From positions 3,928 through 67,927 of the forward strand of contig JBMORM010000017.1 of NCBI GenBank assembly GCA_049322675.1: a stretch of DNA of 64,000 bases, in the 5' to 3' direction. The position numbers and the translations under genes are program-made. Of this stretch, positions 28,336 through 53,537 are shown one piece after another (position 1 is the first letter of the stretch; the number at the start of each line of letters is the position of its first letter). Below the pieces are notes generated by a model that was given only the letters and a program-made list of their open reading frames with translations, was not told where the DNA came from and ran no database searches. The stretch is from Patescibacteria group bacterium. Its GTDB lineage: Bacteria > Patescibacteriota > JAHJAL01.

Positions 28336-29202
28336 TTAGAGCGGAAAAATAATATCTTTGTTTGTACTGGTTTGGAGAATCTGAATATTTTTTTGGTTGA
28401 GTAGATTGATTGTTTTTTGACTGGGATGATTGAATCGGTTATTCTGACCGCAGGAAATTATAGCAATATCGGGCGATGTGGTTTCAATAAAACTGTTGCT
28501 TGTGGCTGATTCTGAGCCGTGGTGCGCTATTTTTAAAATATCAACATTTATGTCTTGTTGATATTTTTTTGTGAGGGAAATTTCTATGTTTTTGGAAATA
28601 TCTCCGGTGAGCAGGATTTTTTTATCTTCAGTTGTTTTGTTTAATAATAAAACCAACGAATTATCATTGAGGTCATTTACTAGTGGTGGATTTTGGTTAA
28701 AAGGGTAGAGAATGTTCAAGGAATATTTGTCGAATAAAATTTTTTGGGGAAAATAACCGTAAAATATTTCCGTATTTTGGTTTTTTGCTAAGGAAATTAG
28801 ATTTTCCATGAGTGAATTGGAATCGGAAATTTTGGGTATGAGTAATTTGTCGATGTGGTAGTTTTCGAAAACAAAGAAAAGACCTGTGATGTGGTCTTCG
28901 TGAGGATGAGTAAGGATCATTAGCTCGATATGCCGATCATATGGCAAAAGGATATTTGATAATTTGTTTAGAACAGCATTATCTGGTCCGCCATCAATTA
29001 GAATTTGTTGCTGATTTTTGGTATTTATTAAAATGCAGTCTCCTTGTCCGACGTCCAAAAAAGATATTGTAGGTTTGATTGGTCGATTTAGCCAAAGGAG
29101 ACAGATGCCTAGAATACAATTTAAAGCAAGGAGGGTGGCTAATATTTTATTGAGTTTTTTTAGTGCCGAGAGATTTTGGGTGGAATGCTTGGTGATAGAC
29201 AT
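28336..29202 (-). CDS. comEC: ComEC/Rec2 C-terminal part (TM helix + metallo-beta-lactamase domain); separate ORF, split from the N-terminal part
   Basis: FLDVGQGDCILI...ILIDGGPDN...LTHPHEDHITGL; overlaps the N-terminal ORF by 56 nt in another frame. Confidence 0.7.
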   Translation of the reverse strand: MSITKHSTQNLSALKKLNKILATLLALNCILGICLLWLNRPIKPTISFLDVGQGDCILINTKNQQQILIDGGPDNAVLNKLSNILLPYDRHIELMILTHPHEDHITGLFFVFENYHIDKLLIPKISDSNSLMENLISLAKNQNTEIFYGYFPQKILFDKYSLNILYPFNQNPPLVNDLNDNSLVLLLNKTTEDKKILLTGDISKNIEISLTKKYQQDINVDILKIAHHGSESATSNSFIETTSPDIAIISCGQNNRFNHPSQKTINLLNQKNIQILQTSTNKDIIFPL

Positions 29203-30622
29203 AAATTGAGAGTAGGCAATAATAGATAATTAAGATTTTTTTGTCAGGAAAAAAAGAAAAGTTGAAAATTTTTTGTTGAGATAACAATTCTATGATTTGG
29301 TGACATAGATTCAGAATAATATTGAGGGGTAGTGATATGAGGGTTTGGATTGATTCTGGTAATAGAATACTAGTGAAAATATTTATCAAACCGTAAATCA
29401 TAATGAAGGGTATAAGAGGGACAATGATAAAATTGGCCGGTAGAGACAAGAGAGAGTATTTATGAAATAGGTATATCAAATAGGGAGTGGTGGTTATTTG
29501 CGCGCCGAGGCATTCCAAAGTGTTGTTAATAAAAGGATGTTTCAAATTGATGTTTTCAAAAAAAGCAGTAATTGGATTGGCGACAAAAAATATTCCTATC
29601 GTGGCTAGAAATGATAGGTGAAATCCTAGGTCATACCATAGAATCAAGGGATTTTGAAAAATCATAATAGTGGCAGCTAGAAAAATAGCAACGATTGGGT
29701 AAGGGCGTCGGCTTAGGTAGGGAGAGATAATTGCGATGATAGACATAATTAGTGCGCGGATGATTGAGCTTTCGGCACCGGTGAGGATAGTAAAGAGTAT
29801 GAGGCAGGAAATAGTAATAAATAATGCCAGGTGTCGATTAATTATTCCCCGAAGGTTTTTAATAAACAGGTTGGCAAAAATTGCCAGGTTGAATCCGGAA
29901 ACGACAATTATGTGAGTGAGTCCAAGTTGACGAAATTTATCGTATGATTCTTGAGGTAGAGCATTTTTTTCTCCAAGTAAAATGCCTGACAATAGGCTAC
30001 TGTTTAGGGGAGTAAAATTTTTTTTCAGATTGGAATTTATTCTGTCTTTCAGGTTGTAAATGTGTTTGAGAAGGCTGTTTGATCGGTCATCAACTATAGT
30101 GATTTGAGGTTGATTTATCTCGACATAAATGTTGTTTTTTGCTAAATATCCGGAGTAAGAAAATGATGATTGTGCTAAGGATTTTGGAGTTGTAATCAAT
30201 CCGTTGATTGTTAAAGTTTGGCCATAATGATATTGGGGAAAAGTACTTGTGACAATTTGAGCCCGACCGGAATAATTGGTGTGGTTTGTTGAAATGTTGG
30301 CAAGGGTTATTTTTTGCTGGTTATTTTTTTGGATAGGGGGATCGGAAATAGTCCCGGTAAGTGTTTTATTGGTTGTAGCTAATATTTGAATGTTGTTGGT
30401 GATAATGGGTTGGAGAAAAAAATTGAAGTTAAATATTGCTAGTTGTAGGCTGGTTAAGGCGAGAAAAAAATAGAATAGTTGGTTTTTGCTTATCCAGGAC
30501 AAAATGGCAAGTATAAAAAAAAGATAAAAAATCGATTGAGGGATGGGAAAAAAATTTGGGGATAGGAAAGTCCCGATGATAAATGATAGACAAAAAACCA
30601 GAGTAGATATTGATTTTGACAT
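29147..30622 (-). CDS. comEC: ComEC/Rec2 N-terminal part (DUF4131 + competence membrane domain)
   Basis: Polytopic membrane protein with the competence-domain motif LGLTHIIVVSGFNLAIF; the reading frame ends inside an A7/T7 run region next to the C-terminal ORF. Confidence 0.7.
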   Translation of the reverse strand: MSKSISTLVFCLSFIIGTFLSPNFFPIPQSIFYLFFILAILSWISKNQLFYFFLALTSLQLAIFNFNFFLQPIITNNIQILATTNKTLTGTISDPPIQKNNQQKITLANISTNHTNYSGRAQIVTSTFPQYHYGQTLTINGLITTPKSLAQSSFSYSGYLAKNNIYVEINQPQITIVDDRSNSLLKHIYNLKDRINSNLKKNFTPLNSSLLSGILLGEKNALPQESYDKFRQLGLTHIIVVSGFNLAIFANLFIKNLRGIINRHLALFITISCLILFTILTGAESSIIRALIMSIIAIISPYLSRRPYPIVAIFLAATIMIFQNPLILWYDLGFHLSFLATIGIFFVANPITAFFENINLKHPFINNTLECLGAQITTTPYLIYLFHKYSLLSLPANFIIVPLIPFIMIYGLINIFTSILLPESIQTLISLPLNIILNLCHQIIELLSQQKIFNFSFFPDKKILIIYYCLLSIYVYHQAFHPKSLGTKKTQ

Positions 30623-39436: not shown

Positions 39437-39461
39437 TTTTAAGTTTAGAAGTGTTTGAAAT

Positions 39462-40508
39462 TTATAAAACTGATTTTTGATAACAACTTTCGCAATAAAC
39501 CTTCTCCGTTCGCTCCGGCGCATAAGTAGTTTCAAATTCATTTGTGCATCTGCCTTGATGTTGACACTCGCTCTTTCTAGTTAATTGTTCATTGTTAATT
39601 GTTAATTTCCCCTCACACATGCATTGTCTGTGCCAAAGTTTTCTCGGATTGAGTTTGGCCAGGCGATCGATGTGTCGCTGGTCGGGATGTCGGCGAGGGA
39701 TTTGAATATTTCTTTCGATATATTGGGCGAGTTCTTGGGGTAGGATTTTGAAAGGTCGGCCGGTAATTTCACATTTTAAAATACTTTTCAGACAATTGTC
39801 TATTTCTGTTTGCGCTTCGGGATTACTTTGAGGGTTGTAAATAGAAATGTCTTTCGGTTCATAGAATGGTCCGTCATATTTTATACCATAGTCATTATCT
39901 TGCCATTTGGCATTGATTTTTTCGGCTTGATTTTTTGTTAGAGGAAAATATTCCATCGCGACGGTTTCGTTGTAGCCGAAGGGGGAAATGTTCATGGGAA
40001 AAAATTGTCCCCATTCGTTGGTCTTTTCCATATGATTAATAATTTGTGGGACTAGTTTTTCGTATTCTTTTTTGCTGTATTGTTTGTTTAGAATGCAATA
40101 TTGTTTGTGATTGAGACCGACGCAGCCAAAGAGGTTTTGACTGTTGAAATTGGCAAAAGAATAAAGACAATCTTGACTGGCGACCAGATGGGCGCAAAAG
40201 CTGCTGCGAGGGATTTGAAAAGCTGAACAGATTTGGTAGTTTAGCTCGCTCCAACCGAGTGAGCTGATATCCATTGAATCTTTGAGTTCGTATCCGATAG
40301 AAATATTTTTGCAATTATCAGATTTATCAAAATAAAATCCATGGGAAACATTGCGGCAATTTTTCAAATGATCTCCAGTGCAGTTTTCGCAAAAGATTAG
40401 ATCGGCAAATTTGTAGCGATATTTTTTTAGGTGATTATTGGATTCATCGATTGCTTTGTTGACTCCTGTTGAACTGGATAAATATTCTTTGATTTTTTCA
40501 AAGTACAT
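39462..40508 (-). CDS. Cys-rich protein, C-terminal part; in the same frame as 40704-41225 across a single TAA
   Basis: Frame stays open from 40508 up to the TAA at 40704-40706, encoding ...CENLYNSVNCAKCNNSSYLNDCAGCDNCHFCQDCLECKDC...; many CxxC pairs. Confidence 0.5.
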   Translation of the reverse strand: MYFEKIKEYLSSSTGVNKAIDESNNHLKKYRYKFADLIFCENCTGDHLKNCRNVSHGFYFDKSDNCKNISIGYELKDSMDISSLGWSELNYQICSAFQIPRSSFCAHLVASQDCLYSFANFNSQNLFGCVGLNHKQYCILNKQYSKKEYEKLVPQIINHMEKTNEWGQFFPMNISPFGYNETVAMEYFPLTKNQAEKINAKWQDNDYGIKYDGPFYEPKDISIYNPQSNPEAQTEIDNCLKSILKCEITGRPFKILPQELAQYIERNIQIPRRHPDQRHIDRLAKLNPRKLWHRQCMCEGKLTINNEQLTRKSECQHQGRCTNEFETTYAPERTEKVYCESCYQKSVL

Positions 40509-40703
40509 TTCTTTGGATAATAGCTGATTGAAAAAATAATATTTTTTGTGACTGAGATTGGCTGAGGCAAAGCAATCTTTGCATTCCAGGCAGTCTTGGC
40601 AAAAATGGCAATTGTCGCAACCGGCACAATCATTTAAATATGAACTATTATTGCATTTGGCACAATTGACTGAATTGTATAAGTTTTCGCAATAACTAAT
40701 CCA

Positions 40704-41225
40704 TTAGTTATCAATGTTATTTTTTCCATTAAGAGAGTAGGTATTGTAATAGCAGTTTTCGTTGTAATGTCCGCCGACATTGAGATAGCAATTTTTGCTT
40801 TCGGATTCATGGTTGGTAAAATCACTGTTTTCATTGTTGGTACTGACGAGACTGAGCAGTTTGCTTTTGTGCAATAGTTGATTGAATTGTTTGAAAAATG
40901 ACTGGTCAAAATTATAATTTTGACCAATGTTGACCGGGTCCCATTGGTCGGACCAAAAACAGTTGGCGCAGCAGACTTTGTAGTCTTTATCTGGTGAATA
41001 AATCGAGACTATTTCTTTTTGACAAAGATGACATTTTCTTTTGTATAATTTTCGTTCATTACGCCAGACTAGACGCTGTTGTTCGCGACATTGTGGACAG
41101 AGAGAGGGGAGAGGAATTGGAAACTTTTTTTCGTTTGTTTCAGGGGATATTTTAGTCAAAAGAGCAATATCTTCGTTGGTGATAGAGAAATTGATCTGAC
41201 ATTGAGAGCAAATTTTTGATTCCAT
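40704..41225 (-). CDS. Cys-rich protein, N-terminal part (zinc-ribbon-like CxxC...CxxC pairs), terminated by an in-frame TAA
   Basis: CSQC...CPQC...CHLC...CCANC. Confidence 0.5.
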   Translation of the reverse strand: MESKICSQCQINFSITNEDIALLTKISPETNEKKFPIPLPSLCPQCREQQRLVWRNERKLYKRKCHLCQKEIVSIYSPDKDYKVCCANCFWSDQWDPVNIGQNYNFDQSFFKQFNQLLHKSKLLSLVSTNNENSDFTNHESESKNCYLNVGGHYNENCYYNTYSLNGKNNIDN

Positions 41226-41346
41226 GCTGAGTTTGGTTTATTGTTGTGTTTTTATTTTATCTTTTTTGTAATTTTTTTTCTAATTTATGGTTTGAAAATT
41301 GGTGGAGGGAGTGTTACGCTATCTATAGATTTTAAAGGAGGCAAAA

Positions 41347-41865
41347 ATGGTAATGAGTTGGAATATATTTATTGTCTTTTGCGTTCTGGTATCGGTGCTC
41401 TATGGCTTTATTTTGCAGAGAAACAAAATTATTTTGAGTTTGATAAATGTCTATATTGCTTTGGCAGTGGTGACAGTTGTTGGTCCCAGTTTTAACAATT
41501 TGATGCAGAAGGTGGGGTTGGTGATGCTAAATGAAAGCATCTCCGGGAGGTTATTTAGTTTGTTTTTAACGCAAACTTTTTTGTTTGTTTCGTTAATCTT
41601 GCTATTGTCGATTAGAGCGGAACATGCACAAGCGATGGCCGACGTTAAAGTTAGTCATCCGATGATATTGTCCTTTGTTTATAGTGTTTTGTTTGCTTTG
41701 ATCGTGGCATCCACAATAATTTCGTTCTTATCTCCCGAATTACAGGCCAATATCAATTCTCAATCCAATATTATCTCTTGGATTATGGCGCAAAAATCGC
41801 TTTGGATTATTTTTCCGGTTGTTCTTATGATTGTTTCTAGTTATTTTATAGTGCCTGAAGAATAA
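41347..41865 (+). CDS. Hypothetical membrane protein (4-5 TM)
   Basis: AAGGAGG SD before ATG 41347; hydrophobic helices. Confidence 0.45.
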   Translation: MVMSWNIFIVFCVLVSVLYGFILQRNKIILSLINVYIALAVVTVVGPSFNNLMQKVGLVMLNESISGRLFSLFLTQTFLFVSLILLLSIRAEHAQAMADVKVSHPMILSFVYSVLFALIVASTIISFLSPELQANINSQSNIISWIMAQKSLWIIFPVVLMIVSSYFIVPEE

Positions 41866-42104
41866 TTTTTTTCTTGCCAAGAACGTGTTTTGACTGTTAA
41901 GATGTTATTGTCGCTGTTTAGGTATGCAGTGATGTCTTAAAAAAATACAAGTTTCAAGTACCAAGGCTCAAGTTTCAAGATTTCGAATGTATTTACACAA
42001 AAAAATTGTCGCAGAAATTTTTTTGTAGAGGAGGAGGCGTTCTGGTGGTGAAGTGAGAGACAGTATGTCTGGCTCGCACGCAACGTTAAGAACGACTTTG
42101 ACGA

Positions 42105-46495: not shown

Positions 46496-47020
46496 ATGTT
46501 GATTAGAGAGTTTGTTGGAGCTGATTGTATGATTGCCAAACAAGAAGTTTTGGTGGGAAAAGTGGTGGAAGTGGTGGTAGATCCCAATCGGCCAAAAATT
46601 GTAGCCTTGATTGTGGGTCAGGATGAGAAGAAATCAAAGAGGAAAATTGTAAAAATTGCTAGTGTGATTGACGGATGGAACGGATTGGTTTGGATTAAAT
46701 CTCGAGAAAATCTGCTTGATTTTGATAAAGCAAAAATTATTGCTGATATTGTTGGGCGAGGATATCTGGTGTTGGGTCGTTGGGCCTTGAATAAAAATTT
46801 GGATAGAATTGGAAAAATAATGGATTTTGATTTTGACTTGTTGACAGGAATGATCAATAATTTTCATCTGGAAAAAGGAATAGGTTGGTGGAAGCAGAAA
46901 AGGATTATTGGCGCAAGGTTGTTTATTGAGATAATTGCTAAAGGGGTAGTATTTGATCTGGAAAGTTCAGCCGATTTGCGTTTGCAAAAAATTCAAGAAG
47001 TAGAATTGGTTATTCAATGA
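46496..47020 (+). CDS. PRC-barrel domain protein (two PRC-like repeats)
   Basis: VLVGKVVEVVVDPNRPKIVALIV and IVGRGYLVLGRWALNKNLDRIGKIMDFDFD resemble PRC-barrel/YlmC-like segments. Confidence 0.45.
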   Translation: MLIREFVGADCMIAKQEVLVGKVVEVVVDPNRPKIVALIVGQDEKKSKRKIVKIASVIDGWNGLVWIKSRENLLDFDKAKIIADIVGRGYLVLGRWALNKNLDRIGKIMDFDFDLLTGMINNFHLEKGIGWWKQKRIIGARLFIEIIAKGVVFDLESSADLRLQKIQEVELVIQ

Positions 47021-47919
47021 TTTTTTTGACGGTGGTATTTTTGGTGAACTTCTTTAAGATGTTTGTCGGTGAGATGGGTATATATTTGGGTAGTGGTGAT
47101 TGAACTGTGTCCAAGTAAGCTTTGGACGGAGCGAAGATCAGCGCCATTGATTAGTAAATCGGTGGCAAATGAGTGTCTTAGGGTGTGAGGAGTAACTTTT
47201 TTGACTAGGCCGGCTTTTTTGGCGGTTTTACGGATAATTCTTTGGATGGAACGGGCGGTTAGGACACTAGTGTTTTGGTTTTTTTTATGATGACTGACAA
47301 ATAAATATGGATTGATGTCTTTTCGGATAGCGAGATATTTTTTTATTGTTTGAAAACAATTGTCCGAGAGAAAAACTACTCTTGATTTGCCACCTTTGCC
47401 AGTGACAGATATTTCTTGGCGGTCGAATCCTAAATTTTCTTTGGTTAGTTTTATCAACTCACTGACTCGCAATCCTGTGCTGAAGAGTGTTTGCAATATA
47501 GCGTTATCGCGAAGGTTTTGAATGTCTTTTGCATCTTTAAATGTGGCCAAGAGTTGGTCAATTTCTTCTTGTTCCAAAAATTCTGGTGGTTCTTTTTTTT
47601 CTTTTATTAGTTCAATTTTTTCCGGACTAAATGAAGGAATATCTTTTTTTTGAAGAAATTTTAAAAAGGAGCGGAGGGCGATAAGATGGTAATTTTGGGT
47701 TTTTTGACTAATGCTTTCGTGGTGTGTGTTTTTGTGTGTTAGTAGGTGGAGTCGAAAAGTACGAATTTTTTTTTCATCAATTTCGGATACATTGATATTT
47801 TTGGTAAAATTGAGAAAACGACCAAGATAGTGAGAGTAGTTTTCGATTGTTTTTTTGCTTTTACCTTTTTCAAGTTGGCAATACTCGATAAATTGATCGA
47901 TACTTTGGCTTAGTTTCAT
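47014..47919 (-). CDS. Tyrosine site-specific recombinase, XerC/XerD family
   Basis: N-terminal SAM-like core-binding domain; catalytic box HTLRHSFATDLLINGADLRSVQSLLGHSSITTTQIYTHL with Arg, His-x-x-Arg and Tyr. Confidence 0.85.
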   Translation of the reverse strand: MKLSQSIDQFIEYCQLEKGKSKKTIENYSHYLGRFLNFTKNINVSEIDEKKIRTFRLHLLTHKNTHHESISQKTQNYHLIALRSFLKFLQKKDIPSFSPEKIELIKEKKEPPEFLEQEEIDQLLATFKDAKDIQNLRDNAILQTLFSTGLRVSELIKLTKENLGFDRQEISVTGKGGKSRVVFLSDNCFQTIKKYLAIRKDINPYLFVSHHKKNQNTSVLTARSIQRIIRKTAKKAGLVKKVTPHTLRHSFATDLLINGADLRSVQSLLGHSSITTTQIYTHLTDKHLKEVHQKYHRQKNH

Positions 47920-53057: not shown

Positions 53058-53119
53058 AGGGGAATAATTTTTTTTCAAAAAAGAGGAATACCAGTTGGTT
53101 TTCCTCTTTTTTGAAAAAG

Positions 53120-53191
53120 TCGGGGACGGGGGAATCGAACCCCCTGTCTCTCGAACCCGAATCGAGCGCTCTACCGGTAAGCCAGTCCCCG
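53120..53191 (-). tRNA. tRNA-Pro (anticodon CGG)
   Basis: Reverse complement: CGGGGAC acceptor, loop TTCGGGT, T-arm GGTTCGATTCC. Confidence 0.75.
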
Positions 53192-53197
53192 TAAAAA

Positions 53198-53268
53198 TGG
53201 ACCTAGGCAGAATTGAACTGCCGTTTCCGCAATGCGAATGCGGCGTATTACCCCTATACTATAGGCCC
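53198..53268 (-). tRNA. tRNA-Ala (anticodon CGC; G3:U70 identity pair present)
   Basis: Reverse complement: GGGCCTA...TAGGTCC acceptor with G3-U70, loop TTCGCAT. Confidence 0.8.
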
Positions 53269-53280
53269 GATTAATAAAAA

Positions 53281-53354
53281 TGGCCACTAGTGGGCTCGAA
53301 CCACTGGCCTCTACGATGTGAACGTAGCGCTCTAACCAGCTGAGCTAAGTGGCC
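53281..53354 (-). tRNA. tRNA-Val (anticodon CAC)
   Basis: Reverse complement: GGCCACT acceptor, GCTCAGCTGGTTAGAGC D-arm, loop TTCACAT. Confidence 0.8.
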
Positions 53355-53359
53355 AAAAA

Positions 53360-53433
53360 CGCCCCGGGCAGGAATCGAACCTGCAACCTTCACCTTAGAA
53401 GGGTGCTGCTCTATCCAATTGAGCTACCGGGGC
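53360..53433 (-). tRNA. tRNA-Arg (anticodon TCT)
   Basis: Reverse complement: GCCCCGG acceptor, loop CTTCTAA, T-arm GGTTCGATTCC. Confidence 0.75.
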
Positions 53434-53537
53434 AAGATACAGGATTGGATATGTTCTTTTGTTATTATAATATATCTTATCAGTGGGATGAAATGGGATT
53501 ATTAACAAAAGAGGGATATTTTTAGTTTTTGTATTAT

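Follow-up and report, generated by a model that had tools for sequence, protein, structure and literature searches.

Does a gene whose frame is broken by one stop codon still make a full-length protein, does it make two shorter ones, or has one copy of a gene been lost? This question is raised by positions 39462..41225 of the window (the whole 64,000 nt stretch of DNA that was analysed). Read on the minus strand from 41225 to 39462, the region makes 588 codons that are open save for one TAA at codon 174; as delimited by translation and tblastn, it is a gene of 587 codons with an internal TAA and a terminal TAA. The internal stop lies at 40704..40706 (minus strand) and is followed by a T, its context on the gene strand being AAT AAC ATT GAT AAC TAA TGG ATT AGT. 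NCBI annotates the interrupted gene as two hypothetical proteins, ACOZAR_03505 and ACOZAR_03500. A previous inspection of the letters (the sequence-only reading) had proposed a fresh pseudogene, a sequencing error or a site of stop-codon readthrough.

The two listed ORFs, 40704-41225 (173 aa) and 39462-40508 (348 aa), share one frame, and the 65 codons between them (40509..40703, minus strand) are open and contain no ATG, GTG or TTG, so that translation bears out the earlier description of two same-frame ORFs with open sequence between them. The content of the three parts can be read from the homologue alignment and from an AlphaFold2 (AF2) model of an intact orthologue of the same length. The N-terminal fragment (40707..41225, minus strand, 173 aa) is predicted to begin with a double zinc-finger module (residues 1-100), followed by a helix and some four coils of the first of two solenoids; the invariant C6, C9, C43, C46 and C65 are present in it. 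The 65-codon stretch corresponds to the part of solenoid 1 that is richest in cysteine, with 10 Cys forming a ladder with a period of 3 residues, and the peptide CAGCDNCHFCQDCLECKDC, which the sequence-only reading had quoted, maps to this stretch. The C-terminal ORF (39462..40508, minus strand, 348 aa from an internal Met) would encode helices, solenoid 2, the most conserved segment of the protein (FGCVGL..KQYCILNKQY ... EWGEFFP..SPFGYNET) and a C-terminal double zinc-finger module. The fused protein has 38 Cys by count, fewer than the roughly 45 given before. The sole plausible promoter-like site for the gene in a consensus scan (TAGAAA, 17 nt, TAAAAT; 41254..41282, minus strand) is located before the true start, just 5′ of the ATG at 41225.

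Homology runs across the stop. When ∼120 family members were compared with the window by tblastn, they produced one continuous alignment from 41225 to 39465, and an intact protein of 587 aa (P0001) matches the window protein with 93% amino-acid identity at 100% coverage. The fused sequence, searched against 5.8 billion proteins, gave >6599 matches; the best 120 of these are nearly all 540-600 aa long, cover 99-100% of the query and, where named, come nearly all from the Patescibacteria group (Berkelbacteria, Peregrinibacteria, Gracilibacteria and Abawacabacteria). A profile search of 1.84 billion cluster representatives yielded 5763 clusters (50% identity) at E<=1e-3 and 2418 at E<=1e-30, and the best 150 of the 5763 are single full-length proteins, 541-601 aa long apart from one of 808 aa. 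Species-representative genomes provided 42 loci, made up of 39 complete copies, two copies cut by contig ends and one with masked N; all 39 complete copies are uninterrupted. Since the alignments are continuous, the best 150 clusters are single proteins and none of the 39 complete copies is broken, the family members are single chains and not, as the sequence-only reading had allowed for, naturally two proteins that end and start at these positions.

On this evidence the region 41225..39462 is one gene, a member of a large Patescibacteria family that occurs in multiple copies, and the earlier view of one gene cut by a single in-frame TAA is confirmed both by the translation and by the homology that continues across the stop. 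ACOZAR_03500 and ACOZAR_03505 would be better annotated as one disrupted gene than as two proteins. The window contains 12 pairs of long open stretches that share a frame and are separated by a single stop, and homology was shown across the stop only in this one. No second copy of the gene was found within the window in tblastn searches with family members.

What stood at codon 174 before the stop can be read from the relatives, in answer to the question, also posed earlier, of whether a sense codon is expected at 40704-40706. In the alignment the closest homologues have Tyr at this position, and the wider family has Tyr, Leu or Phe. Five loci (L001-L005) with ∼92% DNA identity to the window have the hrcA-grpE-hsp20-dnaK-dnaJ neighbourhood in common with it; the gene there is 1764 nt long as in the window, without indels, the 18 bases flanking the stop site are identical, and the codon is TAT (Tyr). 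TAT is also found in the MAG DAIRGB01 (L007; 92% DNA identity, the same hrcA-grpE-hsp20-dnaK-dnaJ neighbourhood), where the encoded protein is identical to P0001. In the nearest sequence, a Logan contig of sample DRR490230 (L050) with 99.15% DNA identity over 2585 nt, the codon is TAC (Tyr), and the 21 differences from the window gene consist of 17 synonymous changes, three amino-acid changes and the stop. These alignments show that the ancestral codon 174 encoded Tyr, and by the same comparison the TAA is one third-position transversion away from a Tyr codon (TAC or TAT). The same TAA was not found at this site in the orthologues (L001-L005, L050) or in the 39 complete family copies; the comparison thus shows a stop that is private to the window strain and younger than its separation, at ∼1% divergence, from the closest strain sequenced. 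Further strains carrying the site were sought by pattern in JGI metagenome contigs; one scan had no match, and the next had two, both unrelated and due to chance.

In the alignment of L050 with window positions 39442-42026, 21 of the 22 mismatches fall inside the 1764-nt gene, and one falls in 821 nt of flank. Such clustering may mean that the allele was imported by recombination.

Apart from the stop, the gene sequence is undamaged. There are no indels over the 1764 nt relative to the relatives, and all family-invariant residues are kept in the window protein. Synonymous and non-synonymous differences between the window and L001 are in the ratio 23:7 upstream of the stop and 62:33 downstream of it; between the window and L050 the downstream ratio is 9:2. 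With P0002 as outgroup, the amino-acid changes derived in the window and in the relative number 4 vs 2 upstream and 11 vs 9 downstream. By indels, substitution ratios and derived changes we saw neither relaxed selection nor further lesions 3′ of the stop; therefore, the break is either very recent or not a real one. The undamaged downstream sequence would fit a very young lesion and would fit a still-functional gene equally well.

We consider it probable that a fresh nonsense mutation, a third-position substitution changing Tyr-174 from TAC or TAT to TAA, knocked out one copy of the gene. Of the options in the sequence-only reading, the fresh pseudogene is the one that the Tyr codons of the close relatives favour. 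A rather unlikely alternative, to which we nonetheless give some weight, is that the TAA is a sequencing or consensus error, or a strain polymorphism caught by the assembly, and that the real or commonest genome has Tyr and an intact gene. This would agree with a lone third-position substitution in an otherwise perfect gene, with selection that is not relaxed downstream, with the intact gene in the 99.15%-identical strain and with the origin of the window in a metagenome-assembled genome (MAG). It would also have a counterpart in the closest related MAG, DAIRGB01, where a paralogue (L011, 376-2145) has a one-base frameshift at a G6 run, resembling an assembly error, and the true conserved C-terminus (GCQHQGRCTNEFETTYAPERTE...) sits in another frame. 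The base itself, however, recurs in an assembly made by a different assembler: an unbroken Logan contig of SRR32167788 (22,958 nt) matches the window with 100% identity over 4313 nt, and the TAA is part of the match. The Logan contig and the MAG were probably built from the same underlying reads; as a second assembler yields the same TAA, the stop is unlikely to be an assembler artefact. In addition, the stop site is outside any homopolymer or repeat, and all other genes in the 15.6 kb common to the window and L001 are intact. Phase variation was ruled out as well, there being no repeat or homopolymer at the site of the stop.

The two remaining explanations keep the gene at work in spite of the stop. 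In one, a 173-aa N-terminal and a 348-aa C-terminal protein are both made from a working split gene and act together or separately. The NCBI annotation as two CDS is in its favour, as is the coincidence of the ATG at 40508 with the start of the predicted helix between the solenoids. A Shine-Dalgarno-like motif precedes only ∼8 of 37 window gene starts, the leaders being A/T-rich, and the lack of such a motif before 40508 proves little because most window genes start without one; the C-terminal part could still be translated to some degree on its own. Against a split, the ATG at 40508 is 196 nt past the stop, with no promoter-like site 5′ of it on the minus strand in the consensus scan, 65 conserved codons would be lost (the nearly invariant C215 and C218 among them) and solenoid 1 would be cut in mid-coil. 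Natural two-gene versions are not the pattern in the family either; the sole other split member found (L049, 3332-5098) is cut by a nonsense codon elsewhere, one in-frame TAG at codon 201, where P0003 has Glu. That locus is from a different sample, with 57% identity over its C-terminal ORF (P0093). We regard a working split gene as very unlikely. A restart overlapping the stop was rejected too, as the ATG within TAATGG is out of frame and a TAG follows two codons on.

In the other explanation, functional readthrough or recoding, a suppressor or near-cognate tRNA reads the TAA and translation continues to the full-length protein. An open frame, intact conserved residues downstream and a divergence that is mostly synonymous are what this would predict, yet none of the orthologues has the stop, nor does any other complete copy of the family that was examined, and the second broken member, L049, has a different stop codon at a different site. 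The 66 window ORFs of >=120 aa end with TAA (34), TAG (19) or TGA (13), and dnaK in the window ends with TAA; these counts show TAA to be a normal terminator in this genome, and within the window it is the commonest genuine one. An alternative genetic code was rejected, since TAA, TAG and TGA all end ordinary window genes. No other window gene has homology shown across an in-frame stop. Among the 11 further same-frame candidates, four, all on the plus strand, were individually checked and are unrelated, domain-complete neighbour genes (bPH_2 and SBF; an unknown protein and a polysaccharide flippase; NUDIX and glycosyltransferase; PGM and DUF805); of the seven on the minus strand, judged by ORF coordinates only, six lie inside longer plus-strand ORFs. 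A suppressor tRNA, which the sequence-only reading had suggested looking for, was not present among the 11 tRNAs of the 64,000-nt window, whose anticodons are all ordinary, and an Rfam scan of the window detected tRNAs and nothing else.

The termination context points the same way. In E. coli, UAA followed by U was reportedly placed by Poole, Brown and Tate in 1995 among the least leaky contexts, and by this rule, which may not hold in the present organism, the stop would be a strong one. Reassigned stops are known from related settings, as UGA is read as Gly (code 25) in Gracilibacteria and Absconditabacteria, and TAG or TGA are recoded in phages. The present case is like these in that a conserved gene, in a bacterium of the candidate phyla, contains an in-frame stop; the difference is that here the codon is TAA, occurring once and in one strain, while all three stops terminate ordinary window genes. 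With a stop that is not conserved, a standard code and no suppressor in the window, readthrough gains no support and is, of the explanations considered, the most improbable. This stop offers no evidence of altered decoding in the lineage.

If the preferred reading, a fresh nonsense mutation, is right, a substitution in the last base of codon 174 (Tyr) would have created the TAA, and translation would end there, giving a 173-aa product that comprises the N-terminal zinc-finger module and a stump of solenoid 1. The 65 codons 3′ of the stop would not be translated at useful levels, and probably the remaining 348 codons would not be either. The cell would presumably tolerate the loss of this copy because the same genome has at least one intact paralogue, ACOZAR_02370 (P0090), a protein of 589 aa that is 43% identical and whose locus-tag prefix is that of the window genome. 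In the change of a conserved sense codon to a stop, in the standard code and in the intact paralogue, the case resembles recent nonsense pseudogenes of multi-copy families. It differs from a typical nonsense pseudogene in that no secondary decay is visible, for which reason the inactivation is deduced from the stop alone. Other members of the family are sporadically broken too, at different sites, as the TAG of L049 and the G6-run frameshift of L011 illustrate. The stop itself matters little, being a further example, in a MAG, of a nonsense change limited to one strain or of a base error.

Copies of the family are often multiplied. At L017, L020, L022 and other loci, in genomes of Paceibacteria, Saccharibacteria and Staskawiczbacteria type, members follow one another in the same orientation, forming tandem arrays that reach at least five copies within 7.7 kb. 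Apart from such tandem paralogues, no conserved neighbours of family members were found.

The family could not be named from the letters alone, and the databases agree. The window protein has no meaningful match in Pfam or NCBIfam; the Pfam scan of the fused translation, one of the checks proposed earlier, gave none at E<=1. When 18 sequences (the window protein and 17 homologues) were scanned, zf_Tbcl_2 (PF23477) was detected in 10 of them at E<=0.1 (best 6e-5), at the termini only, and LIM matched weakly in three. For the fused protein and its close homologues, Pfam, NCBIfam, PADLOC and PHROGs returned nothing beyond this terminal zinc finger; a profile search of PDB sequences found only a LIM-type ‘cysteine rich protein’ (E 0.055), and a literature search for a named Cys-rich Patescibacteria family turned up nothing relevant. 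The Pfam families zf_Tbcl_2 (PF23477) and zf_Tbcl (PF13451) are probable treble-clef zinc fingers, also called ‘CxxC-x17-CxxC domain’, and one source names a family member ‘CxxC-x17-CxxC domain-containing protein’. The N- and C-terminal modules of the present family likewise carry CxxC ... CPxC pairs, and the Cys pairs C6/C9, C43/C46 and C578/C581 are conserved in it. Still, the zf_Tbcl models cover only ∼60-100 residues at the ends, whereas the central ∼380 residues have no Pfam, NCBIfam, PADLOC or PHROGs model.

The AF2 model, computed for P0001 from a 113-sequence alignment, is a confident one, with a pLDDT of 90.7 and a pTM of 0.90. From the N terminus, it places in P0001 a zinc-ribbon module (residues 1-100), solenoid 1 with beta-bridges at every third residue and a 12-residue repeat (121-236), two helices (238-266), solenoid 2 (270-380), a further helix (385-401), the conserved alpha/beta segment with EWGEFFP..SPFGYNET (402-480) and a second zinc-ribbon module (481-587). 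The predicted protein would thus carry a LIM-like double zinc finger at each end, two narrow solenoids with turns of 12 residues and a lining of Cys or Ser, and a highly conserved alpha/beta segment. The two terminal modules are homologous to each other, as residues 444-497 of one family member (P0118) match window positions 41210-41022 by tblastn (E 1e-5). In solenoid 1, each third position is Cys in 50-98% of the members and otherwise Ser, Leu, Val or Asn; judged by this variation, the Cys ladder looks like a packing ladder more than a set of obligatory metal ligands.

A Foldseek search with the P0001 model gave no significant match to a PDB structure. The best, non-significant matches were to left-handed beta-helix (hexapeptide-repeat) proteins, namely LpxD, GlmU and gamma-carbonic anhydrase, which have a beta-solenoid in common with the model; their E-values are ∼0.01 (all >=0.0076), probabilities <=0.3 and TM-scores <0.25. 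The period differs, being 12 here with a Cys or small residue at each third position and not 18, and no match to the Hexapep Pfam model was obtained for the window protein and 17 homologues. With no significant match and a turn of 12 residues instead of 18, membership among the hexapeptide-repeat left-handed beta-helices is not supported. A second likeness, to be taken as a lead only, is to the antifreeze protein of Tenebrio molitor, a Cys-rich narrow beta-helix whose turns are 12 residues long and whose Cys face the core; a narrow solenoid of this turn length with inward Cys is the common feature. This protein is absent among the Foldseek PDB matches listed, and the differences are plain: in the present family there is no signal peptide, Cys recurs at each third and not each sixth residue, and the solenoids form part of a zinc-finger protein of 587 aa.

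As a working guess of low confidence, the normal role of the protein may be that of a cytoplasmic zinc-dependent scaffold or binding protein. We further suggest, tentatively and as a possibility we hold short of likely, that the stop is a side issue and that the interest lies in the family itself: a large, mainly Patescibacteria, often tandem family whose core may be an undescribed fold of two 12-residue-turn solenoids, with a Cys/Ser ladder that possibly holds metal ions or disulfides, and with duplicated zinc-finger caps. The family deserves a name and a structure, as it is common among bacteria whose genomes are very small, often tandemly multiplied and reached by domain libraries at its termini only. 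It is the family and its unusual predicted solenoid, and only these, that are worth further work.

Several features elsewhere in the window were recorded on their own account. The strand asymmetry is extreme: the plus strand of positions 1-64000 has 16041 G vs 7632 C, a GC skew of +0.36 with constant sign. Third codon positions have a skew of +0.62 in genes on the plus strand and of -0.61 in those on the minus strand; as it flips with the strand of the gene, the skew follows the DNA strand and not transcription. A similar G/C disparity with monotonic cumulative skew has been described for the Microgenomates genome Ch65 and its relatives (PMC7143001). A comEC-like gene on the minus strand (28336-30622) consists of ORFs in two frames, 29147-30622 (DUF4131 and Competence) and 28336-29202 (Lactamase_B), which overlap by 56 nt with an A7 run inside the overlap; the arrangement could be either a frameshift or a natural split. 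A cluster of four tightly packed tRNA genes (Pro-CGG, Ala-CGC, Val-CAC and Arg-TCT) is located at 53119-53434 on the minus strand, and a tyrosine recombinase gene is found at 47014-47919.
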